DNA of 54,803 bases from a virus, in the IMG/VR virus record IMGVR_UViG_3300037313_001570, positions 1-54,803 of that record; one strand, written 5' to 3'. Position 1 is the first letter of the stretch, and each line of letters begins with the position of its first letter. Shown here one piece after another: positions 5,740-32,377 of the stretch. The position numbers and the translations under genes were made by a program. The notes beneath the pieces are model-generated. The model did not search any database and was not told the origin of the DNA. It worked only from the letters and a program-made list of their open reading frames with translations.

Positions 5740-5799
5740 ATCCATTTTCTTTTTTATTTGTGTTACAAATGTATGTACCTTTAATATAAATGTAACACG

Positions 5800-5979
5800 A
5801 TGGCAACAGTGAAAAAAACAGATCATGTATCCGGAAGAGTTAGCGCAGATGCTGTAAAAAATATTACAATGATAAGCGAAGTAATGAAATGGAGTTTTAA
5901 TCAAACTTTAGAGGAGGCAATGCTTCGATTAAAATTAGAAGATATAGTTATTGAAATCTCAAAACAAAACAAGAAATAA
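5800..5979 (+). CDS. small ORF (59 aa), possibly a ribbon-helix-helix-type regulator
   Basis: ATG at 5800, TAA at 5977-5979, below the ORF-track cutoff. Translates to MATVKKTDHVSGRVSADAVKNITMISEVMKWSFNQTLEEAMLRL (strand-helix-helix pattern). Its stop abuts the next ATG at 5981. Confidence 0.35.
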   Translation: MATVKKTDHVSGRVSADAVKNITMISEVMKWSFNQTLEEAMLRLKLEDIVIEISKQNKK

Positions 5980-5980
5980 T

Positions 5981-6832
5981 ATGCAACTTCAAAAAGCATC
6001 TCGAAAGAAGGTAAAAATAAAAATGTCTATCTCTTCTCCAACAGGTTTTGGGAAAACATATTCTGCTCTTCTTTTGGCATATGGCATAACAAATAACTGG
6101 GAAAAAATTTGTGTAATCGATACAGAAAATCGGTCTGCTGCATTATACGAACATTTAGGTTCTTTTTATACAATTGAAATGAACCCGCCTTTTAACATTA
6201 ATGAATTAGAAAAGGCGTTTAGAATGTGTATCGATGCAGGAATTGAAGTTATAATAGTGGATAGCGCATACCATTTCTGGCAATCTGTTTTAGATTATGT
6301 AGATTCGCTTGGAAGCGGATATCAAAATTGGAAAAAAGGTAGTCCTGTTTGGCAGAAATTTATTAACCTTATTCTTCAAACAGACATACACGTTATTTCC
6401 ACGATTAGAAAAAAACAGGCATACGCGATGGTTCAAGATGGAAATAAAACAAAAGTGGAAAAGAAAGGTCTGGAAGATCAAGTACGGGATGGTTTTGATT
6501 ACGAAATGACAATTGCATTTGATTTAATAAATGATATGCACCTTGCTAAAGCAATGAAAGATAGAACAAGGTTATTTGATGGAAAGCAAGAGTTTATTAT
6601 TACAGCCGAAACTGGAAAACAAATACGAGAGTGGTGCGAACTTTGCAAAGAGCCAGAAAAACAAAAACCTACGATAAGCGACAATGCATTTGCACAAGCT
6701 ATTGCAAGAATACAAAAAGGAGAATCTTTATTTGATAAATTAAACGAATCTTTTAATTTATCAGATGAACAAAAAACTCTAATTGCAGAAGAGATGGATA
6801 AATACCTTAAAAGACAAGCAGGGGAGGATTAA
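5981..6832 (+). CDS. AAA/RecA-like ATPase (Sak4/AAA_24-like)
   Basis: Walker A SSPTGFGKTYS and Walker B-like VIIVDSAYHFW. The ATG at 5981 is preferred over the TTG at 5951. Confidence 0.7.
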   Translation: MQLQKASRKKVKIKMSISSPTGFGKTYSALLLAYGITNNWEKICVIDTENRSAALYEHLGSFYTIEMNPPFNINELEKAFRMCIDAGIEVIIVDSAYHFWQSVLDYVDSLGSGYQNWKKGSPVWQKFINLILQTDIHVISTIRKKQAYAMVQDGNKTKVEKKGLEDQVRDGFDYEMTIAFDLINDMHLAKAMKDRTRLFDGKQEFIITAETGKQIREWCELCKEPEKQKPTISDNAFAQAIARIQKGESLFDKLNESFNLSDEQKTLIAEEMDKYLKRQAGED

Positions 6833-6922: not shown

Positions 6923-7918
6923 ATGAAGAAGAAAACTATAGAAAAAGTATTAAACCAAAAGTTCAGCAATTGGATAGAAACGATAAAGGACGAGAGTGTG
7001 AAAAAACTTGTCCAAAGTAATACAATCATTACAGGCGGTTGTATTGCTTCTATGTTATTAAAAGAACAAATAAATGACTTTGATATTTATTTTACAAATA
7101 AGGAAACGGTGATAGCTGTTGCGAAATATTATGTAGCTCAATTTAAAAATTCACCACATCTTCATAAAGAAGGGAAAGAAATAACAATTGAAGTTATTGA
7201 TTGCGATAATGCAAATCAAAGACAGCAAAATGTAATCGGTGTTTCAAATACAGATCCAGGACGCGTTAAAATTCATATTAAGAGTGCTGGTATTGTTGGA
7301 GCGAAATGGGAAGATAATTATCAATATTTCGAGAATAGGCCACAAGAAGAAGCTGATGATTATGTCGATTCAATTACTGGGCAAATTTCGGAACAAGATG
7401 AAATTATAATTAATACAGAATCCCAAGAGAAATATCGTCCGGTTTTTCTTTCTGCAAATGCAATTACTCTTAGTAATCAAGTTCAAGTGGTGTTGCGCTT
7501 CTATGGAGATCCAGAAACAATACATCAGCATTATGACTACATACATTGCACGAATTACTGGTTGAGTTCTACAGGAAAATTAACTTTGAAACAAGCTGCA
7601 TTAGAATCATTGTTTGCAAAAGAGCTTGTCTATGTTGGTAGCAAATATCCAATCTGTTCTATAATTCGTACAAGAAAATTTATTAAACGTGGTTGGACAA
7701 TTAATGCGGGCCAATATCTTAAAATGTGCTTCCAGATTAGCAAACTTGATTTAGAAAATTTGGATGTATTAGAAGATCAATTAATAGGAGTAGATGCTGC
7801 ATATTTTGGGCAATTAATTGACGGTTTAAATAATCATGCAGAAAATTTAAAATCGGATGGTAAAGAATTTAAGCTAGATTACGGATATCTTGCTACTATA
7901 ATTGATAAGATATTTTGA
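6923..7918 (+). CDS. hypothetical protein, possible nucleotidyltransferase-fold N-terminus
   Basis: ITGGCIASMLLKEQINDFDIYF resembles a GG...DxD pol-beta-type NTase motif. This is a weak call. Confidence 0.55.
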   Translation: MKKKTIEKVLNQKFSNWIETIKDESVKKLVQSNTIITGGCIASMLLKEQINDFDIYFTNKETVIAVAKYYVAQFKNSPHLHKEGKEITIEVIDCDNANQRQQNVIGVSNTDPGRVKIHIKSAGIVGAKWEDNYQYFENRPQEEADDYVDSITGQISEQDEIIINTESQEKYRPVFLSANAITLSNQVQVVLRFYGDPETIHQHYDYIHCTNYWLSSTGKLTLKQAALESLFAKELVYVGSKYPICSIIRTRKFIKRGWTINAGQYLKMCFQISKLDLENLDVLEDQLIGVDAAYFGQLIDGLNNHAENLKSDGKEFKLDYGYLATIIDKIF

Positions 7919-8166
7919 TGTCGCATAAAATTATTCAATACTTTAAATCTATTGGTATAAACGAATTCAAGGTAATGTTTGCGCTATATAATATAGAGGA
8001 TAGCGAAGATTGGCCTTGGATTCGTTTATATAATAGAGTTATCCCAATTACAAAGAATGAATTTATTCATAAACGTTGGAATGATTTTTGCGCTTATGTA
8101 AATAATCATAAAGAACTTTATTATAAATATTTCAGCAATGACAAAAGTAAAATCGATCTTCGTTAA
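7915..8166 (+). CDS. hypothetical protein (83 aa)
   Basis: ATG ORF whose ATGA overlaps the upstream stop. Confidence 0.55.
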   Translation: MMSHKIIQYFKSIGINEFKVMFALYNIEDSEDWPWIRLYNRVIPITKNEFIHKRWNDFCAYVNNHKELYYKYFSNDKSKIDLR

Positions 8167-9358
8167 AAATCTTCGCGCAATAAACAGCGAGAATCTACAA
8201 TTAAATGGCTGTACTGCTATTATATTGGGCGGTAATAATAAAGGTAAGACAACTCTTACTAAAGCATTAATCGAACGTTTGCGCGGCATTAAACCAGAAC
8301 ATATATTAAAACAAGGAGAAGCAAATGGAATGTATGTAATGGAGCTTACGAATGGGGATAAATTAGAATGGACTGTAAACGGAACGAAAGAAAAATTAAA
8401 ATTAATCACTCCTAATAACGTAACGCATTCTATTACAAAAGAAATTTCTTCTTACTATTTCCCTAAAGGGTTTGATGTTGATAAGTTTCTTAATGAAACT
8501 CCAAGCGAGCAAAGAAAAGCACTTCAACGAATTTCAGGTTTAGACTTCAGCGATGTTGATAAACGTTATAAAGAAGCATATGAAAATCGAACATATGCAA
8601 ACAAGCGTCTGCAAGAAGAAAAGGCAAAGGAAATTCTTTTCGAACCGCATTGGGCAGAAACACTTAATGAAGAAGAAATATTGAATTTAGAAAAAGAAAT
8701 TAATAGTATTGAAGCTCATAATCTTCAATATAAAAACATCCAGGAGAAAGTTGAAGAAAAAAAGTCCAATTGCATTGCAGCAGAAAAATTAATAAGAGAA
8801 TATGAAGAAAAAATTGCCGCAATACAAATTGGGTTATCAGAGACAAAATTGGAAATTAAGAAAGGAGAAGAATGGCTCAACAGAGAAGATAAAAAACCGA
8901 AAGACGAAAAATATAAAAACGATCTAAAAGAAAAGCTCATTGATAAAATCGAAAACGAAGAAGCAATTAAGCGAAAAAAAGAATTAGAAAAAGCAGAACA
9001 AAATGCGATTGTTTGCGAGGAAGAAATACAAACAATATTGCGAGATAAAGACGAAATGATTCGCCTTGCAGATATGCCTGAAGGTTTTGAATTTGATGAT
9101 ATTACAGGAGGAATTAAATACAATGGATTCCCTTTTGATAAGAAAAATCTATCCAGTTCTGCGATATATATAGGGGCGCTTAAGCTCGCAGCAAAAACAC
9201 TCGGCGAAGTTCGTACAATCCATTTTGACGCGAGTTATTTGGACAAAAATAGCTTATCGCAGATTGCGGATTGGGCTGAAAAAAATAACTTGCAATTATT
9301 AATTGAGCGGCCAGATTACGAAGGCGGAGAAATAAGATACGAAATTATTGAAGATTAA
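8138..9358 (+). CDS. SMC/Rad50/SbcC-like coiled-coil ATPase
   Basis: Walker A ILGGNNKGKTTL, a long central E/K-rich coiled coil, and C-terminal IHFDASYLD (Walker B/D-loop-like). Confidence 0.65.
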   Translation: MTKVKSIFVKNLRAINSENLQLNGCTAIILGGNNKGKTTLTKALIERLRGIKPEHILKQGEANGMYVMELTNGDKLEWTVNGTKEKLKLITPNNVTHSITKEISSYYFPKGFDVDKFLNETPSEQRKALQRISGLDFSDVDKRYKEAYENRTYANKRLQEEKAKEILFEPHWAETLNEEEILNLEKEINSIEAHNLQYKNIQEKVEEKKSNCIAAEKLIREYEEKIAAIQIGLSETKLEIKKGEEWLNREDKKPKDEKYKNDLKEKLIDKIENEEAIKRKKELEKAEQNAIVCEEEIQTILRDKDEMIRLADMPEGFEFDDITGGIKYNGFPFDKKNLSSSAIYIGALKLAAKTLGEVRTIHFDASYLDKNSLSQIADWAEKNNLQLLIERPDYEGGEIRYEIIED

Positions 9359-9947
9359 AAATAAGATAAAAATTATGTTGCACAATAATGAGGATATTAA
9401 TAATTATGTGAAAGAAAATTTTGCTCAATACGATGTAAAAAGTATTCTTGAATTTATTGGTGAAAATGTAGACAGAGAAGGATTAAAAGATACACCTAAA
9501 CGGTACATTAAATTCTTGCAAGAATTTTTAAATCCACAAAAGTTCGAAATGACATCTTTTAATAGCGAGGGAATGAACGAAATGGTTATTGTAAAGGATA
9601 TTCAATTCTATTCCCTGTGCGAACATCACCTCGCTCCTTTCTTTGGCATTGCTTCTATTGCATATATTCCGAATGGTAGAATAGTGGGGATAAGTAAATT
9701 GCCCCGACTTGTTGATCATTACAGCAGAAGATTACAAAATCAAGAGCGTATTACTTCTCAAGTTGCCGAACATTTAATGGATGCAACGAATGCCATAGGA
9801 GTCGCAGTTGTTTTAAATGCACGGCATATGTGCATGGAAATGCGTGGAATTAAAGCTTCTGGAGCAAATACAACGACGAGTAAAATGCTAGGTGTTTTTT
9901 CAACAGATGTAAATGCAAGACAAGAATTTTTAAATTTGATAAAATAG
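9348..9947 (+). CDS. folE: GTP cyclohydrolase I
   Basis: FYSLCEHHLAPFFG and the ISKLPRLVDHYSRRLQNQERIT motifs. An alternative ATG lies at 9375. Confidence 0.9.
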   Translation: MKIKNKIKIMLHNNEDINNYVKENFAQYDVKSILEFIGENVDREGLKDTPKRYIKFLQEFLNPQKFEMTSFNSEGMNEMVIVKDIQFYSLCEHHLAPFFGIASIAYIPNGRIVGISKLPRLVDHYSRRLQNQERITSQVAEHLMDATNAIGVAVVLNARHMCMEMRGIKASGANTTTSKMLGVFSTDVNARQEFLNLIK

Positions 9948-10121: not shown

Positions 10122-10934
10122 ATGAAATACTATGCCGCCATTGCTAGCGAAGAAGAGGGGCGCGCTCCAACAATACAACCTCCGTATTGTATGTTGCTTT
10201 CTTACCATTATTTTAAAAAGAAAGCAGAACTTGTTAAATCGTATATCGCTAAAGGCTTCGATATATTTATTGATAGCGGAGCGTTTAGTGCAGAAACAAA
10301 AGGTGTTCCAATAAATATCGACGAATTCTGTGAATTTATTATTGAAACAGGTGTGGCAACATATGCTGGATTGGATGTAATAGGCAATGCAAAAGCAACG
10401 ATTGAGAATATTCGATATATGGAAAATTGTTATAAATTATCCCCTATTCCAACATTTCATTTAGGCGGTAATTTAGATGATTTATATCATCTTCTTAACA
10501 GGGGTAATACATATATCGCATTAGGTGGCCTTGTGTTTAGCACTAATATAATGCGGTATTGTGATGAAGTATGGAGTATTATTTTAAAGGAAGCTCCAGA
10601 AATTCGTGTTCATGGGTTTGGAATGACAAACTTTGAAATGATGGAACGTTATCCATGGTATTCTGTTGATAGCTCGACTTATAAGAGCGGTAGAAGATTT
10701 GGCAGAATTCCAATTCTTTGGGATGGTTTTAATTTTAAAACATTTCAAGAAGAAGAATTTTGCGAATATTTAAAACAGCTTGGTTTCGATATGGATAATA
10801 TTGAGAATAAACAACGCTGGTTTTTATATGATTATTTTTCTGTCGAATCTTATAAAAAATTCGGTTCTCACCTTAATGATGTAAATAAGATAAAAGATTT
10901 TTCTTACCTTACTGCACAATTAAAATTTTTCTAA
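10122..10934 (+). CDS. dpdA: DpdA-like DNA-guanine transglycosylase (TGT superfamily)
   Basis: LLSYHYF, IDSGAFS and ALGGLV motifs, of the kind I recall in phage DpdA proteins. The gene is embedded among preQ0 synthesis genes. Confidence 0.7.
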   Translation: MKYYAAIASEEEGRAPTIQPPYCMLLSYHYFKKKAELVKSYIAKGFDIFIDSGAFSAETKGVPINIDEFCEFIIETGVATYAGLDVIGNAKATIENIRYMENCYKLSPIPTFHLGGNLDDLYHLLNRGNTYIALGGLVFSTNIMRYCDEVWSIILKEAPEIRVHGFGMTNFEMMERYPWYSVDSSTYKSGRRFGRIPILWDGFNFKTFQEEEFCEYLKQLGFDMDNIENKQRWFLYDYFSVESYKKFGSHLNDVNKIKDFSYLTAQLKFF

Positions 10935-10936
10935 TT

Positions 10937-11171
10937 ATGCAAACAAAAAAAAATTATCACTATTGGCGGGATCGATTTCGATTTTACAAAACGAGAAATT
11001 CTTCGTCTTGCAAAAATTCGCCAAAGATCAAGAAATAGGATTTATCATATAAGCCAATCTAAATTCTTTACAATAAACACTCTTAACTTTATTAGAGAGG
11101 AATTGGATAATATAAAGGATTTAGAAGCAAGAATAAAAATTTTGCAAGATGGGGAACTGGTCGAGAGCTAA
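10937..11171 (+). pseudogene. ORF interrupted at an A9 run (needs a +1 shift or an A8 tract); 75-aa product if corrected
   Basis: The ATG at 10937 hits a stop after 33 codons. A 78-codon open frame (10935-11168, stop 11169-11171) is reached if the A9 tract at 10945-10953 is read as A8. Confidence 0.35.
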
Positions 11172-11499
11172 ACGCGAGCAAATGGAAAATAATAAACGAA
11201 AACAAGAGCTTGAAAAAATTTGCGGTGAAGTTAAAAACTTTAAAGAGGGAGAGGGGGAAGAATTTGAAGTAAAAGTTAAAAAAGTCTCTAACGGTTATAT
11301 CATAGAAAAAGCAGATGGTGTAGACTCTCTTGTATTTAATGATGAAAAATACCCATCTGCAATTGAGTTTATTATCTCTCGCCGCCTTATTAAAATGAAA
11401 CCGGGCGAAGAAATTTATTTAAGAATCGAACAACGTTTCACAAAAATTATAAAAGATGATAAACATAGTACAACCGAGTGCGATGTCAATAACCCGTGA
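11149..11499 (+). CDS. hypothetical protein (116 aa; alternative ATG at 11182)
   Basis: ATG ORF, E/K-rich at the N-terminus. Confidence 0.55.
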   Translation: MGNWSRAKREQMENNKRKQELEKICGEVKNFKEGEGEEFEVKVKKVSNGYIIEKADGVDSLVFNDEKYPSAIEFIISRRLIKMKPGEEIYLRIEQRFTKIIKDDKHSTTECDVNNP

Positions 11500-12085
11500 A
11501 CATGAAATATGCATGGGACATAGAGTTTATGGACATGAGAGTAAATGCTCGAATCTTCATGGACATAATTATAAATTTCTTTTCACTGTTAAACCAAAGC
11601 AATGTTTGGATGGTGTTGGGAGAGTTACTGATTTTAGTGAGGTAAAAAATGTTCTTTGCGAATGGCTGGAAAAAAATTGGGATCATAAGACAATTCTTTG
11701 GGATAAAGACCCTTTGGCGATGGAATTTGAACATATTTTCCCACATGAAGATTTGGTTATAGAAACTGTGCATGTTCCATTTAATCCAACAGCCGAGAAT
11801 ATTGCGAATTATTTTCTTACGGTCATTGCATCAGGATTAACAAAGACAACGGGTTGGTATTTGTATTCGCTTACATTATTTGAGACATCAAAATGTTCTG
11901 CGACCGTTACACTTACAAAAGAGCAAGAGATATTAAAGACTCAGGAAAATCCAATAGTTAAAATGCCGGAAGGTTATTATTGTTCAAAGCAATGCGGGAA
12001 TGAAAGAAATTGTAGATGTGGAGAAAAAGATGATTTTTTTAAGATAAATAATTGTTTACATTGCTATCAAGATTTACCATTCTAA
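11456..12085 (+). CDS. queD: 6-carboxy-tetrahydropterin synthase with a Cys-rich C-terminal extension ending in DLPF
   Basis: GHRVYGHESKCSNLHGHNYKF (QueD HGH motif). An extra roughly 50-aa tail reads CSKQCGNERNCRCGEKDDFFKINNCLHCYQDLPF. The likely true start is the ATG at 11483. Confidence 0.85.
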   Translation: MINIVQPSAMSITREHEICMGHRVYGHESKCSNLHGHNYKFLFTVKPKQCLDGVGRVTDFSEVKNVLCEWLEKNWDHKTILWDKDPLAMEFEHIFPHEDLVIETVHVPFNPTAENIANYFLTVIASGLTKTTGWYLYSLTLFETSKCSATVTLTKEQEILKTQENPIVKMPEGYYCSKQCGNERNCRCGEKDDFFKINNCLHCYQDLPF

Positions 12086-12098
12086 AAAATAAATTCAA

Positions 12099-12779
12099 AT
12101 GAAAAAAGCAATCGTTCTTTTAAGTGGTGGACAAGATTCTACTACTTGCCTCTATTGGGCAAAAGCGAACTTCGATGAAGTAACTGCAATCGGTTTCGAT
12201 TATGGCCAAAAACACAGAAAGGAACTTTTTCAGGCAAAGAAAATAGCCGAAGAAATGGCTAAAGTTCCATATATTATTTTTCCATGTGCTGGTCTATTAG
12301 GAGGCAGCAGCTTAACGGATCATCATTTAAACCACAATCATTCTCACGAACAAAACTCGAATCTTCCAGCATCGTTTACTGCCGGTCGTAATGCCTTGTT
12401 CTTAACTGTAGCAGCGAGCTACGGCCATAAACTCGGCATTACTGATATAGTAACAGGCATTTGTCAGACTGATTATTCTGGATATCCGGATTGTAGGGAA
12501 GAGTTTATTAATGCAATGGAAATGTCATTAAGCTTAGGTATTTACGGAATGTATAAAGGGATGGTTAAAATCCATACCCCATTAATGTATCTTACAAAAG
12601 CAGAAACATTTAAACTTGCAAAAGAACTTGGTTGCTTGGAAATTGTTTTGGAACATACGATGACAGATTATAACGGAAATGATCACAGGAACGAATGGGG
12701 TATGGGAAAAGAAGACAACCCTGCATCAATTATTCGCGCAAAAGGATATCGCGAAGCAAAAGAACGTGGATGGGTATAG
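12099..12779 (+). CDS. queC: 7-cyano-7-deazaguanine synthase
   Basis: PP-loop motif LLSGGQDSTT, DYGQKH and DYSGYPDCREEF. The C-terminal Zn-cysteine cluster is absent (see findings). Confidence 0.85.
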   Translation: MKKAIVLLSGGQDSTTCLYWAKANFDEVTAIGFDYGQKHRKELFQAKKIAEEMAKVPYIIFPCAGLLGGSSLTDHHLNHNHSHEQNSNLPASFTAGRNALFLTVAASYGHKLGITDIVTGICQTDYSGYPDCREEFINAMEMSLSLGIYGMYKGMVKIHTPLMYLTKAETFKLAKELGCLEIVLEHTMTDYNGNDHRNEWGMGKEDNPASIIRAKGYREAKERGWV

Positions 12780-12809
12780 GATAAAATATTTTTTGGAAGA
12801 CAAAAATTA

Positions 12810-12842
12810 TTTGTTCGTTAAAAAAGACACTTCGTATATTTA
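12810..12842 (+). promoter_or_regulatory. candidate Bacteroidota-type promoter
   Basis: TTTG at 12810-12813 and TATATTTA at 12835-12842 with a 21-nt spacer, upstream of the ATG at 12877. Confidence 0.4.
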
Positions 12843-12876
12843 CATTCTATTAAATAAAAAAACCAAATATTTAATC

Positions 12877-13365
12877 ATGGCAAAGAAATCAAAAGCAGAA
12901 TTACAAAAAGAACTCTCAGCTGGTAAAAGTGTTGCAGAAGTTGCAGCCGAAAATAATCCAGAAACTATTGATGCAAATGTAGCAATTGAAAATTCTAAAG
13001 CTACCGAAGCGCCTAAAGAAACCCCGAAGGCACCCGGCAAGATTAAACAAATCTTGGATGCATTTAAATCAGGAAAAACAAATAAAGAAATCGCTGCAAT
13101 GTATGTTTTGGATGCAGATGGTAAGCAAATTCCGACAGGAGAAAATGATAAAGATGGCAATCCCATCTTTGAAACATTTCACCCAACTACAATCAGCATT
13201 CAGGTTTCAAAATACAAAAAAGCAAATCCGGATCTTTATCCTCCTCAACCTCCAGCCCCAACTAAGAAAGAACTCGCAGAAAAAGCAAAAGCAGAAAAAG
13301 CGGCTGCAGAAGCCACTAAGCAATCGGCAAGTGCAGAAGCCGATGTTGCTAACGTTCAAGGATAA
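12877..13365 (+). CDS. Lys/Ala/Pro-rich protein with HTH-like segment (162 aa)
   Basis: The ATG at 12877 (MAKKSKAELQ) is preferred over track start 12679, which overlaps queC. GKIKQILDAFKSGKTNKEIAAMY resembles the HTH of the 25715/27857/28329 family. AEKAKAEKAAAEA tail. Confidence 0.6.
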   Translation: MAKKSKAELQKELSAGKSVAEVAAENNPETIDANVAIENSKATEAPKETPKAPGKIKQILDAFKSGKTNKEIAAMYVLDADGKQIPTGENDKDGNPIFETFHPTTISIQVSKYKKANPDLYPPQPPAPTKKELAEKAKAEKAAAEATKQSASAEADVANVQG

Positions 13366-13890
13366 ATGAAAATTAAATTTCTGATTCTACTTTATTTTAT
13401 TTCTATCATAAGCGCCAATTTACTTATTCAGTTTTTTGGCGTTTATGCTCTTTTAGCTAGTAGCTTTATTCTTATCCCTTTTGATTTTGTAATAAGATGT
13501 ATTTTGCATGAAAAATGGAAAGGGAAACAACTTATAATACGCTTATTCTTGCTTACATTTCTTGCATGCATAACGACTTATGTAATTAATCAAAAGAGCG
13601 AAGATATAGCTTTGGCTTCAATTCTTGGTTTTACTTCTGCACAAGTAATTGCAGGAATTTTCTATCAAATAAATAAGAGTAGATCTTGGTTTATGAAAGT
13701 AAACATAAGCGATTTATTAGCTATTATATTCGATAGTATTGTTTTCCAGCTAACAGCTTTTTCACACATAAATCCTTTAGTAATATTCTTCCAAATAAAT
13801 ATAAAATTCGCTGGCGGTTTATTATGGTTCTTCATCTTATTTAAATTCTTCAAAATTCAAAATTCCTTAATTAATGAAAGAAATATATAA
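13366..13890 (+). CDS. YhhQ/VUT-like membrane protein (queuosine-precursor transporter family candidate)
   Basis: Polytopic membrane protein inside the preQ0 cluster; IFDSIVFQLTAF is a DS..F-type motif. Assignment is from context and memory of the family. Confidence 0.5.
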   Translation: MKIKFLILLYFISIISANLLIQFFGVYALLASSFILIPFDFVIRCILHEKWKGKQLIIRLFLLTFLACITTYVINQKSEDIALASILGFTSAQVIAGIFYQINKSRSWFMKVNISDLLAIIFDSIVFQLTAFSHINPLVIFFQINIKFAGGLLWFFILFKFFKIQNSLINERNI

Positions 13891-14578
13891 ATTAATTGTA
13901 AGTGAAGTTTTTTATTCGATACAAGGTGAAGGTCAAACAATAGGTATACCATCTGTTTTTCTAAGACTCGCAGGTTGCAATCTTCTATGCAAATCTGCTG
14001 ATTGGATTTGCGATACAATAGAAGTTTGGAAGAAGGGTAGGGTTAAATCATTTGAGAATATATTTAACGAGGAACAAATCTATTATCTTGCACATGGCGC
14101 TCATTTAGTTATAACAGGGGGCGAACCTTTAATGCATCAAAATACTATAATTCTTTTTCTTAATTGGTTTAGGAACAATTATAAATTCACTCCTATTATT
14201 GAAATTGAAACTAATGGTACCATTATACCATATCCAATTCTTTTAGATAAAGTTGATTACTGGAATGTTTCACCAAAGCTACCGAATAGTGGCATGAGTT
14301 TTAATAGGAGGGTTAATGAAGTAGCCTGTAATACCATTCAAACATACGGCAGAAAGAAGATTTTCAAATTTGTTATAAGTAAAGAAGAAGATCTTATCCC
14401 TATGCTTGAGGAATATAACTTCATCCAGCCTTCTAATATTATGCTTATGCCTGCCGGAGATAGCGTGGAATCATTAGCCATAACAAGAAAATTAGTTGTT
14501 GAACTCTGCAAACAAAATCAATATCGTTTTAGCGATCGCCTGCATATATCCATATGGAATAAAAAGACTGGTGTTTAA
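13874..14578 (+). CDS. queE: 7-carboxy-7-deazaguanine synthase (radical SAM)
   Basis: EVFYSIQGEGQTIGIPSVFLRLAGCNLLCKSADWICDT, i.e. the QGEG and Cys-cluster N-terminus typical of QueE. Confidence 0.85.
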   Translation: MKEIYKLIVSEVFYSIQGEGQTIGIPSVFLRLAGCNLLCKSADWICDTIEVWKKGRVKSFENIFNEEQIYYLAHGAHLVITGGEPLMHQNTIILFLNWFRNNYKFTPIIEIETNGTIIPYPILLDKVDYWNVSPKLPNSGMSFNRRVNEVACNTIQTYGRKKIFKFVISKEEDLIPMLEEYNFIQPSNIMLMPAGDSVESLAITRKLVVELCKQNQYRFSDRLHISIWNKKTGV

Positions 14579-16466: not shown

Positions 16467-18005
16467 ATGGCTTTATTCGAAGATCAAATAATTTTCATAG
16501 ATAAAATACGACCATGTTTACGCGAAAAAAAATGGATGATCGCATGTGCCGCAACTGGTTTCGGAAAAAGTAAAGTCTTCATCAATATTGCTCAAAGCGC
16601 AATTTTAAAAGGAAAGACTGTTCTAATTTGTACAGAGTCGAAAAAAATATTTAACCAGATTTCTAATGAAACAGATGCAAAATTAATAAATCCCGAAAAC
16701 CATCATATCTATATTCATAGAAATTCGATCTATATTGCGATGGCGCAAACCCTTTCTAATAGAACAGAATTAATAGATCAACTTTTAGAAATTGGGGAAG
16801 ATTTATTAATTATTTGCGACGAAGCGCACATGGGACATTTTACCAAACTATTAAAACCTTTTAAAGAAAAAAATTCTTCTTTTGCCATAGGGTTTACTGC
16901 AACTCCGGATGCAAGATGGGCAAAACATTTACCAGAGTTATATAATGATATAATTGTCGGGCCTCAACCTCATGAATTAATTATAAGTGGAAGATTATGT
17001 GGCTATAAACATTTTGCACGTGTTGGAGCAGATTTTAATAAACTTGTGATACAAAATGGAGATTTTACAGAAGCATCCCAGGAAGCGGCTTTTCAAAATG
17101 CAAAAGTATTTGAAGGACTTATCGAAGATTTAAAAAATGCAAATTACGATAAATGCATGATTTATACTGCTTCTGTAAAAGATTGCAATATTGTCGCTAA
17201 TGAGCTTAACAGGAATGGGTTTAAATGTGTGGCATTACATAAGAATAGCAAAGATTATAAATGCAATGATAAAGAATTCGATTTGCGTTTAAAGAAATTT
17301 CACCCAGAGCTTTCTAAAATCCAAATACCAAAAGAAGAGCAGGTTAGTATAGCTGTTTCTGTCGGCACAATGACTAAAGGTTACGATTACGATAGAATTG
17401 ATTTAATTGTTCTTCGACGCGCAACAACTTCATTACCACTTTATTTACAAATGATTGGGCGCGGAGGGAGGGTTTTAGATTGCGAAAGGCATTTGCCAAT
17501 CGAAGAAAGAATAAAAAAATATTTTACTGTCTTAGATTATGGAGCGAATTATCTTCGATTTGGATTATGGGATAGCGACAGAGAATGGGATGAATTATGG
17601 AAAATGCCAAAGAAAAGTAAAGAAGGGGTTGCTGCTGTGAAGATGTGTCCTCAATGTGAATTTATTGTAAACGTATCAATTTCAAAATGTCCTAATTGTG
17701 GATACGAATTTGAGAAGAAGGATATACCATTAGAGGTAGGTCAATTAATCGAAATTACTGAGACATATTCTAAACTTGTTGAAGCAAAAAAACGAATAGG
17801 CGAATTAACACCGGCAGAGCTCGCTATATATGCAAAGTTGAAAAATAAGAAAAATTTCGCTGCTAGGATTGCAAGAACTAGAGAAGAACAACAACCCGGT
17901 TACCTTATGGAATATGCGAAGGAAATGGATTACAAACCTGCATGGGTAGATTGGCAATTAAAGAGCGATGGCGGAATTGGATTTACTAATTTTGTCCTCA
18001 ATTAA
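16467..18005 (+). CDS. SF2 DEAD/DEAH-box helicase with C-terminal zinc ribbon
   Basis: ATGFGKSKV (motif I), ICDEAH (II), GFTATP (III), QMIGRGGR (VI), and CPQCEFIVNVSISKCPNC. Confidence 0.85.
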   Translation: MALFEDQIIFIDKIRPCLREKKWMIACAATGFGKSKVFINIAQSAILKGKTVLICTESKKIFNQISNETDAKLINPENHHIYIHRNSIYIAMAQTLSNRTELIDQLLEIGEDLLIICDEAHMGHFTKLLKPFKEKNSSFAIGFTATPDARWAKHLPELYNDIIVGPQPHELIISGRLCGYKHFARVGADFNKLVIQNGDFTEASQEAAFQNAKVFEGLIEDLKNANYDKCMIYTASVKDCNIVANELNRNGFKCVALHKNSKDYKCNDKEFDLRLKKFHPELSKIQIPKEEQVSIAVSVGTMTKGYDYDRIDLIVLRRATTSLPLYLQMIGRGGRVLDCERHLPIEERIKKYFTVLDYGANYLRFGLWDSDREWDELWKMPKKSKEGVAAVKMCPQCEFIVNVSISKCPNCGYEFEKKDIPLEVGQLIEITETYSKLVEAKKRIGELTPAELAIYAKLKNKKNFAARIARTREEQQPGYLMEYAKEMDYKPAWVDWQLKSDGGIGFTNFVLN

Positions 18006-18261: not shown

Positions 18262-18732
18262 ATGTTCCAAAAAAAAATAATCACACGCGAAGATGGTACG
18301 CCATATTTAATTCGTACATATCTTATTAAATGCAAGCTCTTCCAAATTGTCCTCCACAAAATTCTTCTTAGTGATAATGATTGCTTGCATGATCATCAAT
18401 GGAATTTTCTTAGCATCATATTAAAAGGCGGTTATTGGGAATGCACAGATCCGGAACAAGTTTTGAGCGGGCCGGAATTGGAATGGTTTAAGGAAAAGTA
18501 TCCTAATCAAAAATATTGCCGATGGTTTGGAGCTGGCAATATTTTGTTCAGGTTTGCAGAATGGAAACATAGCTTAACGCTTGATACAAATAGAGTTGCA
18601 AAAGAATTTTGGAAAGAAAAACCATGCACAACACTTGTGATTATGTTTCGCAAGAAAAGAGAATGGGGTTTTTGGACGAAGCAAGGTTGGTTACATTGGA
18701 CAAAATATAGATCAACTCAAAAATGCGATTAA
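18262..18732 (+). CDS. hypothetical protein, possible cupin-like metal site
   Basis: CLHDHQWNF ... WKHSL. This is a weak call. Confidence 0.5.
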   Translation: MFQKKIITREDGTPYLIRTYLIKCKLFQIVLHKILLSDNDCLHDHQWNFLSIILKGGYWECTDPEQVLSGPELEWFKEKYPNQKYCRWFGAGNILFRFAEWKHSLTLDTNRVAKEFWKEKPCTTLVIMFRKKREWGFWTKQGWLHWTKYRSTQKCD

Positions 18733-18733
18733 T

Positions 18734-19114
18734 ATGTTTCGTGTAATTATTTGTGGAAGCAGGTGGTTTAACGATATGTCTTTTATTTATAAGAAATTAG
18801 ATGCATTATTAATAAATCAAAAAGATGTAGAAATTATTGATGGCGGATGTCCAGGAGTAGACCAAGTAGCAGAAATGTATGCTCATGATCGCGAATTAAA
18901 AAACACAATCTTTCATGCAAAATGGCAAAAATATGGCAAAGGTGCAGGGCCAAAAAGAAATGAAGAAATGGCTGTAAGTTCGCCTACTCCGGATGGTTGT
19001 GTTGCTTTCTGGGATGGGGAAAGCAGAGGAACTTTAAATATGATTGCTATCGCAAAAGCAAAAAATATTCCTGTCAAAATTATTAAAATTTCAAAACAAA
19101 ATAAAATAAAATGA
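18734..19114 (+). CDS. SLOG-superfamily protein (DUF2493/YspA-like)
   Basis: VIICGSR ... EIIDGGCPGVDQVAEMYA ... GKGAGPKRNEEM. Confidence 0.65.
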   Translation: MFRVIICGSRWFNDMSFIYKKLDALLINQKDVEIIDGGCPGVDQVAEMYAHDRELKNTIFHAKWQKYGKGAGPKRNEEMAVSSPTPDGCVAFWDGESRGTLNMIAIAKAKNIPVKIIKISKQNKIK

Positions 19115-19521
19115 GTTGTAAAATTCCGAATGAAATAGAAATGGTAGAAATTTTTCATAACGCTTACGGATGTCCAGTTTATGCCTACCCTGTTCTCCCG
19201 CCAACAGAACGTGTATTATTGCGCGAAAAACTTATGCGTGAAGAATTAAACGAATTATGCGCAGCGATGCAGTTAGGGGATAAGGTTGGGATAGTGGATG
19301 GGTTGTGCGATCTTCTTTATGTTATTTATGGCACGGCATTGGAACATGGCATGGGCGGATTATTAAAAGAGGCATTTTCTGAAGTTCATCGTTCTAATAT
19401 GTCGAAGCTTGACCAAGATTGTAAACCTATCTATCGAGAAGATGGGAAAGTTCTAAAAGGGCCATATTTCACCCCGCCGAATCTATTGAATATTATTAAA
19501 AAATACACTCCATCTTATTAA
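19111..19521 (+). CDS. MazG-like nucleoside triphosphate pyrophosphohydrolase
   Basis: REKLMREELNELCAAM ... VDGLCDLLYVIYGT ... EVHRSNMSKL (all-alpha NTP-PPase pattern). Confidence 0.65.
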   Translation: MSCKIPNEIEMVEIFHNAYGCPVYAYPVLPPTERVLLREKLMREELNELCAAMQLGDKVGIVDGLCDLLYVIYGTALEHGMGGLLKEAFSEVHRSNMSKLDQDCKPIYREDGKVLKGPYFTPPNLLNIIKKYTPSY

Positions 19522-19577: not shown

Positions 19578-22076
19578 ATGCAGAATACGATGTCGAACCT
19601 ATGGAACCAATGTAAGAAACTTCTTGCAGATGGTATATCTGTTATTCCTATACGTGATAAAGATGAAACTTCGCCAGATGGTAAAGTATATACAAAGAAA
19701 AGCCCTTTTAAAATGCGTTGGCAAGAATATCAACAACGCATTTGTAGCGAAAGTGAATTATTTTTTCTTCTTGAAAAATTTGAGACAACAGCTATTGCGA
19801 CTATATGTGGGAAGATTAGTAAGAATATGGAAGGAATTGATGTTGATAGTAAATATAATACAGAAATTCTTAAACCATTATTCGAAGCAATAAAGCAACA
19901 ATTCCCAGACATTAAATTTAAGATTGCAAAAACTCCAAGTGGCGGTTACCACATAATCTACCGTATTCAAGAAGGAGTTATCCCACCAAATAAAAAACTT
20001 GCTCTACGTCTAGCAACTGAAGAAGAGCTTGCAATTAATCCTAAAAGCAAGACAAGATGCTTTATTGAAACGAGAGGCGAAGGCGGATATTTGGCAGCTT
20101 ATCCGACAGATGGATATGAGCTTATTAACGATGTGCCAATCCCTATTCTAACATGGCAGCAAAGAGAAGATTTAATAAGTATCTGCACGTCTTTTAATCA
20201 GGTTTTAAAAGAAGATGCTTATAAGCCAAGTAAGCAGGATAATATCTATTATAGCGAAAATCCATTCGAATCATTTAATAAGAGCAATGATGCGGAACAA
20301 GTGCTTTTAAAAAATGGCTGGACATTTCATAGTAGGAATGCAGAAAGAATTTTCTTCAGCCGTCCAGGCAGCAAAAGTAAGGGAATACATGCTGTTTTTT
20401 TTACAAAGACGATGCTGTATCAATTCTTCACAACGAATTGCGAATTTGAAAACGAAAGACGGTATAATGCATCAACTGTTCGCGCTCAATTAGAATTTAA
20501 TGGAGATAAGAAAAAATTATTTATCGAATTAGTTAATTCTGGTTATGGAAAGATTAAAGCGAATAAAGAAAAAGAATTAGTTAAACATGCTGTTATTAAT
20601 AACCAACCATTACCGGCAAATATTAGCCAGAATGCAAAAGAGTCGCTGCAACAATTGCAGGAGAATTTAATAGTTAATATGCCATATGGCATATTTTGGG
20701 AATATAACGAAAAGGGGAATATTGAAATTAATAGGGAAGATTTAAAGAATGTTCTTTCTGGTTTAGGATATAGATTCTATTTAGGTGATCTAATACAAAT
20801 AGAAGGGAAATTTATTCATAAGCGAAAATCTCGTCACCTATATGATGCGATTAGGGAGTATATTAAAGACGAAGATTATAAAGAAATTGCAAATTCCTTT
20901 GATGCATTTCATGAAAAGCATGGCAAGCATACGATTGAACACCTTCCATTATTGGATGAAAATTTATTATTAAAAGACACCAGAACAGAATGCTATAAAT
21001 TTTTTCAAAATGGATTTGTAAAAATCACTAGCGAAAGGATGGAATTAAAAGAATACGAAGATTTAAAAGGGTTAATTTTTTATGAAAGAATCCAGCAAAG
21101 AGATTTCCGTTTCGGGGAGGTAAGCGGGAAATATATTGAATTTCTAGAACTCGCATGTAGGTATAATCAATGCGAAGATTACATACAGAAAATACTTGGT
21201 TATCTTTCGCATGAATATAAAGATTCTACAACCGGTTATATTATTGTCCAGGTAGAAGAATGCCCAGATCCAAAACAAGGTGGCGGCAGTGGGAAAAATC
21301 TATTTGTTAATCTTCTCGGTTTAACAACTACTTTCTGTAGTAAGCCGGGAGAGCAAGTTAAATTTGATGAGAAATTTTTGCAAGCGTGGAATGGAGAAAG
21401 AATATTTAATGTTAGCGATGTGCCACAAAACTTTTCTTTTCTTTTCTTAAAAGACTTAAGCACAGGAACAGCAACTTTAAAGAAATTATATAAAGACGAA
21501 GTAATAATCCCTTGCGAAAATATGTGCAAATTTATAATGAGCACTAATTACAGTTACGAGACAAAAGATGGAGGATTGAAGCGTAGGATTATACCGATAG
21601 AATTCACGCAATTTTTTACTTTAAATGGAGGAATTGATAATTACTTTGGCGGGATGTTCCCTACTATTTGGGAAGAAAAAGATTGGATTGGATATGATAA
21701 TTTAATTTTGCTCTGCATTCAAAATTGGATTAAAGGGGGGCTTAAATTAAAACCAATGACATTAAGCGATGGAGGTAAGATTAAACAATTCGAGCAAACA
21801 TTTGGGAAAATCATGTCCGGTTATATAAAAGAGAATTACGAAAATTGGTTAAGTATAGGAACTATCGAAAATGATGAATTTAAAAAGATGTATGATAATT
21901 ATTGCAATGAAAATAATTTCCCTCACAACATGCGAGGTAACATGATTAAATTAAATAAGGCGATAGACGAATGGAGCGATTTAATTGGGTTTATTTTTAT
22001 CAAAGATAAATTAATAAAAGAAAATGGCATCAACAGGCGTGCAAAATATTTCGAGCGCAAGAATTTACCATTCTAA
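19578..22076 (+). CDS. bifunctional primase-polymerase / SF3 helicase (P4 alpha / D5-like)
   Basis: N-terminal prim-pol-like region (GISVIPIRDKDE..KSPF..W) and Walker A PKQGGGSGKNLFVNLL in the C-terminal half. The ATG at 19578 is preferred over the TTG at 19572. Ends in NLPF. Confidence 0.8.
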   Translation: MQNTMSNLWNQCKKLLADGISVIPIRDKDETSPDGKVYTKKSPFKMRWQEYQQRICSESELFFLLEKFETTAIATICGKISKNMEGIDVDSKYNTEILKPLFEAIKQQFPDIKFKIAKTPSGGYHIIYRIQEGVIPPNKKLALRLATEEELAINPKSKTRCFIETRGEGGYLAAYPTDGYELINDVPIPILTWQQREDLISICTSFNQVLKEDAYKPSKQDNIYYSENPFESFNKSNDAEQVLLKNGWTFHSRNAERIFFSRPGSKSKGIHAVFFTKTMLYQFFTTNCEFENERRYNASTVRAQLEFNGDKKKLFIELVNSGYGKIKANKEKELVKHAVINNQPLPANISQNAKESLQQLQENLIVNMPYGIFWEYNEKGNIEINREDLKNVLSGLGYRFYLGDLIQIEGKFIHKRKSRHLYDAIREYIKDEDYKEIANSFDAFHEKHGKHTIEHLPLLDENLLLKDTRTECYKFFQNGFVKITSERMELKEYEDLKGLIFYERIQQRDFRFGEVSGKYIEFLELACRYNQCEDYIQKILGYLSHEYKDSTTGYIIVQVEECPDPKQGGGSGKNLFVNLLGLTTTFCSKPGEQVKFDEKFLQAWNGERIFNVSDVPQNFSFLFLKDLSTGTATLKKLYKDEVIIPCENMCKFIMSTNYSYETKDGGLKRRIIPIEFTQFFTLNGGIDNYFGGMFPTIWEEKDWIGYDNLILLCIQNWIKGGLKLKPMTLSDGGKIKQFEQTFGKIMSGYIKENYENWLSIGTIENDEFKKMYDNYCNENNFPHNMRGNMIKLNKAIDEWSDLIGFIFIKDKLIKENGINRRAKYFERKNLPF

Positions 22077-29655: not shown

Positions 29656-30084
29656 ATGATTAAGATGTTTTTAATTGGCAATCTCGGTAAAGACGCAATT
29701 GTAAATACATTACAGAGCGGGAAAACTGTTATAAATTTTTCCTGCGCACATACCGAAACGTTCAAAGATGCTCAGGGCGAAAAAAAAGAAAAAACTACAT
29801 GGGTTGATTGTGCATGGTGGACTGATTCAACTGCAATTGCTCCATACCTTAAGAAGGGTACTAAGGTATTTTTGGAAGGAACACCTGATTTAAAAATGTT
29901 TGATCGCCAGGATGGCAGCAAAGGCGCGACTCTTACTCTGCGTGTATTTGCTTGCCAGCTATTAGGTGGTAATAATTCGCAACAGAGTCAACAAGCTCCA
30001 GTACAGGAACAGGCAACAACAACTAATATAAGTTACCAGAAACAAGCAGATCAATTCGAATGTGCAGACGATTTACCATTCTAA
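29656..30084 (+). CDS. ssb: single-stranded DNA-binding protein
   Basis: OB-fold pattern FLIGNLGKDA...TTWVDCAWW...KKGTKVFLEG, a Q-rich linker, and the acidic tip ADDLPF. Confidence 0.9.
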   Translation: MIKMFLIGNLGKDAIVNTLQSGKTVINFSCAHTETFKDAQGEKKEKTTWVDCAWWTDSTAIAPYLKKGTKVFLEGTPDLKMFDRQDGSKGATLTLRVFACQLLGGNNSQQSQQAPVQEQATTTNISYQKQADQFECADDLPF

Positions 30085-30140
30085 AAAATAATTCATTAAC
30101 CATTAATCTATCCTAACCTTATCCTATAATTTTTTATCTT

Positions 30141-31872: not shown

Positions 31873-32103
31873 ATGAGCAACGAAAAACAACAGGAAGCAA
31901 AAGAGCACGAGTTAACAGAAGAACAAATAAAACAGTTAACAGAGTCGCAACAAATAAAACAGTTAACAGAGTCGTATAATCGAGATTCTGTTCTCCCTCC
32001 CCGTTCTAATACTCGCAAACGCACTCGCGGAAGATTATTGCAAGTAATCCATTTAAAAAATGGTACGCAAAAATTCATTAAACATAAGAAGTATGCCAAT
32101 TAA
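31873..32103 (+). CDS. hypothetical protein with an in-frame 27-nt tandem duplication
   Basis: ATG at 31873 (MSNEKQQEAK). Contains EEQIKQLTES/QQIKQLTES. Confidence 0.5.
   Translation: MSNEKQQEAKEHELTEEQIKQLTESQQIKQLTESYNRDSVLPPRSNTRKRTRGRLLQVIHLKNGTQKFIKHKKYAN
31924..31974 (+). repeat. tandem direct repeat (24-nt unit, 27-nt period)
   Basis: CAAATAAAACAGTTAACAGAGTCG occurs at 31924-31947 and 31951-31974. Confidence 0.9.
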
Positions 32104-32377
32104 CTTTCAAGATATCGGCGTACACAAAGGAGTATACTCAATCGTGTTTGGTGCAGGAGATGTTATAATGACAAATGCAAAACGTGCAGATGGCGATAGA
32201 ATGTTATTGTTTTATTCGGCAGAGAATGGTAAAGCAGGAGAAGTAATAGAATACGAGCAAGGTACAACGACAGACGATTTGCCATTCCCAGAAGCTGCAT
32301 TTATATTCAATCACCCAATGGACATTTCTTTGCTGATTCAAATGTTGATTGAAATCCAAAAAACAATGTTAGTATGA
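32093..32377 (+). CDS. hypothetical protein carrying an internal SSB-tip-like DDLPF
   Basis: ATG at 32093. GACGATTTGCCATTC at 32273-32287 differs at 1 of 15 nt from the ssb 3-prime end. Confidence 0.5.
   Translation: MPINFQDIGVHKGVYSIVFGAGDVIMTNAKRADGDRMLLFYSAENGKAGEVIEYEQGTTTDDLPFPEAAFIFNHPMDISLLIQMLIEIQKTMLV

Follow-up and report, generated by a model that had tools for sequence, protein, structure and literature searches.

Three phage proteins end in the same peptide

We analysed a 54,803-base stretch of viral DNA (IMG/VR record IMGVR_UViG_3300037313_001570; the whole stretch is called the window below), which has a G+C content of 33.9%, carries nearly all of its genes on the + strand and is probably a whole phage contig. 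[quoted passage not shown] Three of the products concern us here: QueD, a 6-carboxy-tetrahydropterin synthase of 200 residues (11483–12085; PF01242, 4.3e-25; phrog_2389, 5.6e-44); a primase-helicase of 828 residues that combines a PrimPol (archaeo-eukaryotic primase, AEP) domain with a D5-type superfamily 3 (SF3) helicase (19590–22076; PF09250, PF19263, phrog_19930); and an SSB of 142 residues with a fold of the oligonucleotide/oligosaccharide-binding (OB) type, a Gln/Thr-rich linker and the C-terminal tip DDLPF (gene 29656–30084, tip 30067–30081; PF00436, 2.3e-19; phrog_44). An initial annotation, made from the bare sequence, had named these three genes and noted that their products share a C-terminal peptide, and both observations are borne out by the open reading frame (ORF) ends and by Pfam and PHROG profile matches. 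QueD ends ...HCYQDLPF, the primase-helicase ...ERKNLPF and the SSB ...ECADDLPF, all on the + strand, with the reading frames running to 12085, 22076 and 30084, and in each of them LPF stands directly before TAA. The sequence TTACCATTCTAA, which spells L-P-F-stop, also terminates the primase-helicase gene (22065–22076), whose NLPF codons occupy 22062–22073 (protein end KNLPF).

LPF occurs four times in the proteome of the window's 79 genes, and three of these occurrences are C-terminal, against an expectation of 0.01 (P(≥3) = 1.8e-7). Chance is therefore excluded at the level of the peptide. An internal DDLPF had also been pointed out at 32273–32287 (+ strand); it is indeed in frame, as residues 72–76 of a 105-residue ORF (32060–32377), but it is not C-terminal. 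A free carboxylate at the C-terminus is important in SSB tips, so we set this internal copy aside, as probably unrelated to the C-terminal tips.

A Cys-rich tail precedes the QueD tip

The start of the QueD gene is ambiguous: the longest ORF begins at 11456 and the gene caller chose 11513, while homology favours the ATG at 11483, the most likely start because the resulting N-terminus (MSITREHEIC) matches those of homologs. An ORF without a family match (11149–11499) overlaps this start region. By profile, motif and structure the protein belongs to the QueD/6-pyruvoyl tetrahydropterin synthase (PTPS) T-fold family (PF01242). The CxxxHGH motif that defines QueD (PMC10516641) is intact (KCSNLHGHNY, that is, C-SNL-HGH), so the protein is probably an active enzyme. 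An AlphaFold2 (AF2) model built from 117 sequences has a mean predicted local distance difference test score (pLDDT) of 90.7, and Foldseek searches with it return long QueD paralogs first (3jyg and QueD2, 7v0f), followed by canonical QueD/PTPS structures (Escherichia coli QueD, 4ntm and 4ntk).

The QueD tip D-L-P-F is encoded at 12071–12082, with the stop codon at 12083–12085 (+ strand). It is preceded by a Cys-rich tail (11963–12070, + strand) that has the arrangement first described for it, C-SKQ-C ... C-R-C ... C-LH-C, within a clade-specific pattern (MP..YC...Q.G..R.C.C.......K...C..C). Across 13 aligned QueD tails, the residues M, P, Y, C22, Q, G, R, C32, C34, K and C46 are invariant and C49 is nearly so; L53, P54 and F55 are invariant as well, with Asp at -4 in at least 90%. 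The tail probably forms a small, compact zinc-binding knuckle on which the tip is displayed, and in this clade the tip lies three residues after the last Cys. In the AF2 model, the successive residue blocks across 141–190 have pLDDT values of 86, 91, 79, 94 and 86, and the last four residues are without regular secondary structure. When 1.84 billion representative proteins were searched with a tail profile, the QueD cluster P0006 alone was matched, and thus the tail is specific to this QueD clade; on the same result we rejected the idea that it is a mobile module carried by other proteins.

The tip is kept on QueD while its tails change

Among the 120 best QueD homologs, 23 end in Pro-Phe, nearly all of them as [D/N]LPF, on at least three different tail types; approximately 20 metagenomic homologs at 50–63% identity retain [D/N]LPF behind a changing tail. 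Approximately 15 of the tip-bearing homologs (50–63% identity, within P0002–P0017) also have the Cys-rich tail. In others (P0016, P0018, P0025, P0036, P0043, P0048, P0076 and P0270) the tail is unrelated and lacks the Cys pattern, in some cases being acidic and of low complexity, and it is still tipped; the endings seen on such tails are IDNLPF, PEDLPF, YEDLPF, DDDLPF, IDDLPF, LDDLPF, VDDLPF and IEDLPF. A separate clade has acidic tails of 30–45 residues with the tips GDDEWPPF (P0091), NTDDIPF (P0241, 21 contigs) and ESDDDSPF (P0242). In a neighbour-joining tree of T-fold cores, this clade lies apart from the main tip-bearing cluster, and its phages encode PolA, a clamp-loader-like ATPase, RecA, DnaB, SNF2 and QueF, that is, a different replication module. 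By composition, the tip stands on disordered tails in P0036, P0076, P0241 and P0242. These alignments show that the QueD tip is under purifying selection, and that it has been kept through tail replacement and acquired at least twice, in at least two phage lineages. Its retention across changing tails agrees with the view that it is a selected SSB-like peptide and not a generic gene-end cassette.

Syntenic relatives of the window were found through QueD and primase-helicase homologs (L001, L004, L005/L008, L007/L010 and L011). Their common gene order is Sak4-like, Gad2-like, FolE, DpdA, QueD, QueC, QueE, clamp-like, SF2 helicase, MazG and PrimPol-helicase, and their QueDs carry the tip. In 80 more distant IMG/VR QueD loci, the tip was present in L018 only, which belongs to the same Sak4/DpdA module lineage. 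Searches of GenBank phages with tblastn gave no record covering the QueD tail and no full-length relative of the primase-helicase, and hence no cultured model of this lineage; megablast of 20 kb of the window against GenBank phages gave no match either. Full-text literature searches returned no report of an SSB-type tip on QueD, and a 2023 survey of phage 7-deazaguanine pathways mentions neither SSB nor QueD tails (PMC10516641). C-terminal tips of the SSB type (SSB-Ct) are themselves known; what is new here is that a base-modification enzyme carries one.

The QueD tip matches the SSB tip of the probable host lineage

The phage SSB shares 48–63% identity with SSBs encoded on the chromosomes of Niabella, Terrimonas and other Chitinophagaceae, and contigs of Mucilaginibacter and Pedobacter carry homologs of the window primase-helicase. 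Because of these two resemblances, the host is probably a member of the Bacteroidota. All 23 chromosomal SSBs that we retrieved from Chitinophagaceae and other Bacteroidota end in DDLPF, and the QueD tip therefore probably matches the SSB tip of the host. In the second QueD lineage, the I-P-F and P-P-F variants resemble the enterobacterial SSB tip DDDIPF (PMC5531588) and the end of the HK620 SSB, NDYPPF.

Known SSB-Ct peptides (DDDIPF in enteric bacteria, DDDLPF in Gram-positives) are the hub of the SSB interactome (PMC5531588). The QueD tip resembles them in its position at the extreme C-terminus, its invariant Pro-Phe, a Leu or Ile in position -3 and an Asp in position -4, and its last four residues are identical to those of the phage SSB and of the 23 host-lineage SSBs. 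QueD, the primase-helicase and the SSB all end in Phe at the extreme C-terminus; an aliphatic Ile or Leu precedes Pro-Phe in the QueD tails, while position -3 of the primase-helicase varies. The SSB has the acidic pair DD before the tip, the window QueD one Asp (QDLPF), and several QueD relatives DD or more. The carriers differ: QueD is a small-molecule biosynthetic enzyme without an OB fold, and its tip stands on a folded, Cys-rich tail.

The primase-helicase ending is an old family trait

Pro-Phe is also the rule among relatives of the primase-helicase. A single-sequence scan of IMG/VR with this protein gave no match, whereas an alignment-based metagenome scan yielded homologs. Of 120 homologs at 42–63% identity, 103 end in x-P-F: APF in 38, TPF in 23, PPF in 13, IPF, VPF and SPF in 6 each, and LPF in 5. 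F821, P827 and F828 are nearly invariant in the 120 homologs, whereas position -3 varies (A, T, P, I, V, S or L), and acidic DD or EE precedes PF in many of them. More distant primase-helicases (35–50%), encoded by elements without que genes, often have SSB-like ends (EDDDGIPF, KIDDEIPF, VEEDDYPF, AEDEEIPF). The ending is thus old and family-wide, and not a recent copy. In the AF2 model (pLDDT 93.6), the last five residues form a coil after a winged-helix-like C-terminal hairpin, and Foldseek finds the PrimPol of African swine fever virus, the poxvirus D5/E5 proteins and the SaPI5 primase-helicase.

Tip variants of the primase-helicase and the SSB are not always matched within one element: L141 and L143 each combine a primase-helicase ending KDLPF with an SSB homolog ending ...KDEF.

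Other proteins with SSB-type tips

Across all fetched loci (L001–L171), 138 of 7,823 ORFs of at least 60 residues (1.8%) end in Pro-Phe, which by a rough estimate is ten times the expectation from composition, and most of these ORFs are replication, recombination or nucleotide-metabolism genes. The tip carriers that we observed comprise two architectures of primase-helicase, SF2 helicases, an ERF recombinase, a phosphoribosyltransferase-like protein, small Cys proteins, QueD and QueC. The QueC homolog (248 residues; L027, 3452–4198) lies on a short IMG/VR contig, ends ...KSLDDIPF and is a second carrier from the preQ0 pathway.

SF2 helicases of Queuovirinae-like phages, homologous to the SF2 helicase of the window, have the tips IIDDIPF, FVDDIPF, LDDDIPF and DDPDYVPF (L023, 30–1232; L028, 4320–6146; L058, 1341–3227; L060, 1113–3089; L195, 1113–3089). 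The last of these loci is Escherichia phage slur01 (LN881725), a cultured E. coli phage whose annotated tip-bearing helicase (CUL01126.1) makes it a possible experimental model. An ERF-family annealing protein ends EEDDRIPF (PF04404, 6e-24) and a phosphoribosyltransferase-like protein ends SDEMPF (weak PF00156 match); these carriers are at L070, 2765–3307, and L092, 247–879. A 1312-residue protein of L209, in which a DnaG-type primase is fused to a P-loop helicase, ends KPVDLPF.

Small proteins of phrog_23504 (65–79 residues), encoded a few kb upstream of QueD, end in [DE]-[IV]-P-F or similar in 13 QueD-containing viral contigs (L017, L022, L025, L044, L052, L053, L054, L065, L078, L079, L080, L087 and L091); the three sequences of this family that we read have C-x-N-C, a further Cys and G-C. 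Finally, a family of approximately 340–390 residues without a Pfam or PHROG match ends ...EPLPF or ...DKLPF (L125, 5119–6210; L127, 3770–4945; L138, 4261–5361; L147, 4757–5875; L136, 5562–6587). Its genes lie upstream of PrimPol-helicases and adjoin those of 122-residue proteins, probably binding single-stranded DNA, that end DDDDLPF.

A proposed docking peptide on a modification enzyme

Starting from the conservation of the tip, its convergence, its match to the host and its co-occurrence with two tip-bearing replication proteins, we lean towards a model in which the [D/N]-L-P-F end of QueD is an SSB-Ct-type docking peptide with a free carboxyl end, carried in this clade on a Cys-rich, probably zinc-binding mini-domain. 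The tip would then dock in the pockets with which SSB-interacting proteins of the host, or a protein of the phage, recognise an SSB tip. Multimeric QueD would thereby be concentrated where SSB, primase-helicase and new DNA are, and the supply of 7-deazaguanine precursor (FolE, QueD, QueE and QueC, followed by DpdA) could be coupled to replication and recombination centres. The binding and the resulting recruitment are the inferred steps of this model. The tethering of 7-deazaguanine synthesis to replication, which the initial annotation had suggested, is a plausible hypothesis.

Candidate readers of the tip include host SSB partners, the Sak4-like protein, the SF2 helicase and the OB fold of the SSB itself. 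No DNA polymerase family was detected among the window ORFs scanned, which did not include every ORF; replication therefore probably relies on the host polymerase or on the phage's own PrimPol domain, and host SSB partners would be plausible readers. The Sak4-like AAA_24 protein (5951–6832, + strand; PF13479, 5.4e-13) is a candidate phage-encoded reader because its HK620 analog, Sak4, depends on NDYPPF, the six final residues of the cognate SSB (PMC5928155). RecT/RecET recombinases are likewise matched to the host SSB-Ct (PMC13490951). Such proteins establish that phages encode tip readers, whereas the window QueD would be an additional tip carrier. The SF2 helicase, which has a UPF0547 zinc ribbon (16467–18005, + strand), is a candidate receptor; it accompanies the primase-helicase in most related elements.

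Two phage systems offer partial precedents. The T7 helicase-primase, gp4, and the T7 SSB, gp2.5, both have an acidic C-terminal tail with a last Phe, by which they bind T7 DNA polymerase, and the terminal Phe of gp2.5 is essential. The acidic gp4 tails bind basic patches on the polymerase (PMC8472574). In the window, as in T7, the primase-helicase and the SSB have C-terminal peptides of one kind, a hint that they dock at a common site. Terminal Phe is shared between the systems, and the tail is acidic in the window SSB and in many primase-helicase homologs. In contrast to T7, the tail of the window primase-helicase is basic (ERKNLPF), its helicase is of the SF3/D5 type with an AEP primase and not of the DnaB/DnaG type, and, with no phage DNA polymerase detected in the ORFs scanned, the target would be a host protein or another phage protein.

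The dNTP (deoxynucleoside triphosphate) synthetase complex of T4 is linked to the replisome via gp32, and its enzymes are reported to bind gp32. The common idea is that enzymes making precursors of modified DNA are physically coupled to replication through an SSB hub. Unlike the T4 enzymes, the window QueD imitates the SSB tail, and it feeds the post-replicative base exchange by DpdA and not dNTP pools (PMC10516641).

Several observations weigh against a docking role. The tip-bearing QueDs belong mostly to one lineage, so that many of our counts are phylogenetically dependent, and L072 (IMGVR_UViG_3300050821_007131), which has the same module, encodes a 182-residue QueD that ends ...FSNMLKEEE without a tip; it is a natural tip-less comparison for the window QueD. 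Only a single acidic residue precedes LPF in the window QueD, and none does in the primase-helicase (KNLPF). Neither protein presents its tip on a disordered linker: the AF2 models are confident to within three to five residues of the end, and in the window clade the QueD tip lies only three residues past the confidently folded tail, where by the model it could pack in cis or between subunits. Moreover, QueE, QueC and DpdA of the window have no tip, and the product of QueD is diffusible, so channeling would not obviously be achieved.

In bacterial genome maintenance, the main hub peptide is the tail of SSB. An SSB-type tip on a 7-deazaguanine enzyme offers a connection, concrete and open to test, from phage hypermodification to the machinery of replication and repair; the account of 7-deazaguanine pathways in PMC10516641 does not deal with how modification keeps up with the synthesis of phage DNA. 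A broader and distinctly more tentative proposal is that the grafting of SSB tips is a general phage strategy, in which a portable label of four to six residues, matched to the SSB dialect of the host, plugs unrelated proteins into the host SSB network. If so, QueD and QueC would tie DNA hypermodification physically to SSB condensates or to centres of replication and recombination. Multimeric QueD and QueC could instead have a second role as competitors, drawing host repair factors away from SSB. The wider Pro-Phe pattern points to a simple rule by which the phage proteins directed to SSB hubs could be predicted. The pattern may be relevant, too, to the matching of recombinases to host SSB tails (PMC13490951) and to defence systems that react to SSB-like proteins of phages (10.64898/2026.04.29.721553).

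Alternative roles for the tip

Competition could in principle be the whole function of the tip. A QueD oligomer that displays several host-like tips might soak up host SSB-interacting nucleases, helicases and repair proteins, with the effect that phage DNA is protected or favoured and not that QueD is localised. The tip does match the host SSB dialect, and QueD-family proteins are oligomeric in the solved structures found by Foldseek, so that it would be multivalent. A parallel comes from Bas52_0087, a phage protein with the host-type tip FDDDIPF that is proposed in a 2026 preprint to perturb host SSB partners, competing with ExoI/SbcB (10.64898/2026.04.29.721553). Bas52_0087, however, is itself SSB-like, with OB folds, and is not a metabolic enzyme. 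A decoy gives no reason why the carrier should be an enzyme of one particular pathway (QueD here, QueC in another phage), and the phage's own SSB already provides competing tips. We therefore consider a decoy unlikely, both as an account of the tip and in the effect on phage DNA that it implies.

Alternatively, Pro-Phe may pack on the protein's own fold or on a neighbouring subunit and serve structure or catalysis within QueD and, separately, within the primase-helicase, its likeness to SSB being a coincidence. Both AF2 tips lie three to five residues past a folded element, and the last blocks have pLDDT values of 86 and 82. Long QueD paralogs with C-terminal extensions also exist: Acinetobacter baumannii QueD2 (7v0f) and WS1659 (3jyg) are the best matches to our model, although they have no Cys-rich tail, the tail profile having matched the QueD cluster only. 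An internal role would not account for the other QueD lineages, which bear the tip at the end of long tails that are acidic or of low complexity and unrelated in sequence, nor for a tip that keeps to the SSB dialect (DLPF versus DDIPF). In many primase-helicase homologs PF is preceded by an extended acidic tail, and most QueDs work without any tail. A purely structural role thus seems improbable to us.

We give still less credence to a degradation tag, by which ClpXP with an adaptor would read the C-terminal LPF and time the turnover of SSB, QueD and primase-helicase. PMC5143411 describes some Streptococcus mutans strains in which LPF, the last three residues of SsbA, suffices for degradation by ClpXP even when placed on green fluorescent protein, and LPF is the very tripeptide found in all three window proteins. 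The same paper reports the recognition as strain-specific, with the motif unrecognised by ClpXP of other bacteria, and the organism is a Firmicute. It also reports that changes to the tripeptide impede degradation; QueD relatives keep LPF, yet primase-helicase relatives have mostly replaced it, and their APF, TPF and PPF ends fit a strict LPF degron poorly.

The initial annotation had named the beta-clamp-like protein of the phage (15072–16121, + strand; PF00712, 1.7e-6; phrog_947, 3e-9) as an alternative receptor. C-terminal hydrophobic peptides are a known way of binding clamps, as in the clients of the T4 and RB69 clamps, and the clamp-like gene is conserved beside the que genes in all relatives. 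The consensus of beta-clamp-binding motifs is QL[SD]LF-like, with a conserved Gln and an L-x-F or L-F hydrophobic core. The residue before DLPF, however, varies (Q, A, N, T, D, E, L or V), without a conserved Gln, and the invariant core is Pro-Phe with Pro at -2, the hallmark of SSB tips, and not the L-F of QLxLF motifs. SSB is not known to be a clamp client. Docking on the clamp fits the data worse than mimicry of the SSB tip, and we regard it as quite improbable.

The shared nucleotide sequence at the QueD and SSB gene ends

The similarity between QueD and SSB extends to the DNA. As the initial annotation had reported, an identical 22-mer, GATTTACCATTCTAAAAAATAA, lies at 12071–12092, where it covers the QueD end and the start of the QueD–QueC spacer, and at 30070–30091, where it covers the SSB end and seven bases past the stop codon (both + strand). 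We confirmed the exact match and found the sequence nowhere else in the window at up to three mismatches; 0 of 100 shuffles gave two matches. The shorter sequence ATTTACCATTCTAA does recur at the primase-helicase end, but at 22063–22076, one base from the 22062–22075 first given. Given the shared peptide, the probability that the same codons are used for D-L-P-F-stop is 0.027 and that the same seven bases follow the stop is 3e-4 to 1.3e-3. Jointly, these values amount to approximately 1e-5 to 4e-5, and within this genome the 22-base identity exceeds what independent codon choice predicts.

The relatives do not share this excess. In L010 the QueD gene ends in AATTTACCATTCTAA, versus GATTTGCCATTTTAA followed by GCTG for the SSB gene; the SSB gene of L211 ends in GACCTGCCGTTCTAA followed by ATT, and that of L009 differs again. 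The QueD-end 22-mer is identical in L001 and nearly identical in L007, L010 and L004, a likeness for which the codon identity of 0.38–0.53 at conserved residues among QueD orthologs is explanation enough; excess codon conservation at the tip among these orthologs was not significant (p of approximately 0.02–0.08 for four codons). In L005 and L008, the amino acid tip of QueD is kept while its codons differ. The proposal that the nucleotide sequence of the SSB tip was copied onto QueD and the primase-helicase thus fails: x-P-F is family-wide in the primase-helicase and DLPF clade-wide in QueD, and in L010 and L211 the SSB genes differ in the codons used and in the sequence downstream.

Beyond this lineage, the exact 22-mer occurs in 15 IMG/VR contigs (31–41% G+C), always in frame at the end of D(D)LPF proteins. 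The carriers are two SSB families, a small OB-like protein and the 1312-residue DnaG-type primase-helicase of L209 (match at 5773–5794, - strand), none of them related to the proteins of the window. The likeliest explanation of the 22-mer is therefore largely codon usage in an AT-rich phage together with an A-rich context after the stop. Its double occurrence in this genome may also reflect a short gene-conversion patch, with the direction, if anything, from the QueD end to the SSB end. A DNA-level element, such as a cassette for gene ends or terminators, or a mobile sequence with an incidental LPF, is highly implausible and largely refuted, since the excess identity is confined to this genome, the two sites have no similarity upstream of GAT and need a gap downstream, and the 22-mer was in frame wherever it was found. 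Concerted evolution or a cassette for all three gene ends was likewise rejected by the relatives and the IMG/VR contigs.

Other genes of the window

The remaining enzymes of the modification pathway flank QueD on the + strand. FolE (GTP cyclohydrolase I, the first step of preQ0 synthesis) is encoded at 9348–9947 (phrog_2197, 3.7e-63) and the DpdA-like DNA guanine transglycosylase at 10122–10934 (phrog_887, 4.5e-44; phrog_7068, 5.3e-29). QueC follows at 12099–12779 (PF06508, 9e-61), the Vut_1/YhhQ-like membrane protein at 13366–13890, and the QueE-like radical SAM enzyme at 13874–14578 (phrog_2076, 1.2e-56). The MazG-like gene lies at 19111–19521, and a small terminase subunit gene comes after the SSB gene.

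Several neighbouring genes lack a clear assignment. An ORF of 228 residues (12679–13365) without a Pfam or PHROG match overlaps the QueC end by approximately 100 bases; relatives have an unannotated gene of 148–203 residues at the equivalent place, between QueC and the Vut_1-like gene, and the window ORF could encode a further modification enzyme. Two conserved unknowns (6923–7918 and 8138–9358) adjoin the Sak4-like gene, and their counterparts in relatives carry PF26128 (Gad2) and a weak AAA_15 match, respectively. Between the SF2 helicase and MazG lie genes for a protein matching a PHROG labelled 'cysteine dioxygenase' (18262–18732) and for a YspA/SLOG-family protein (18734–19114).

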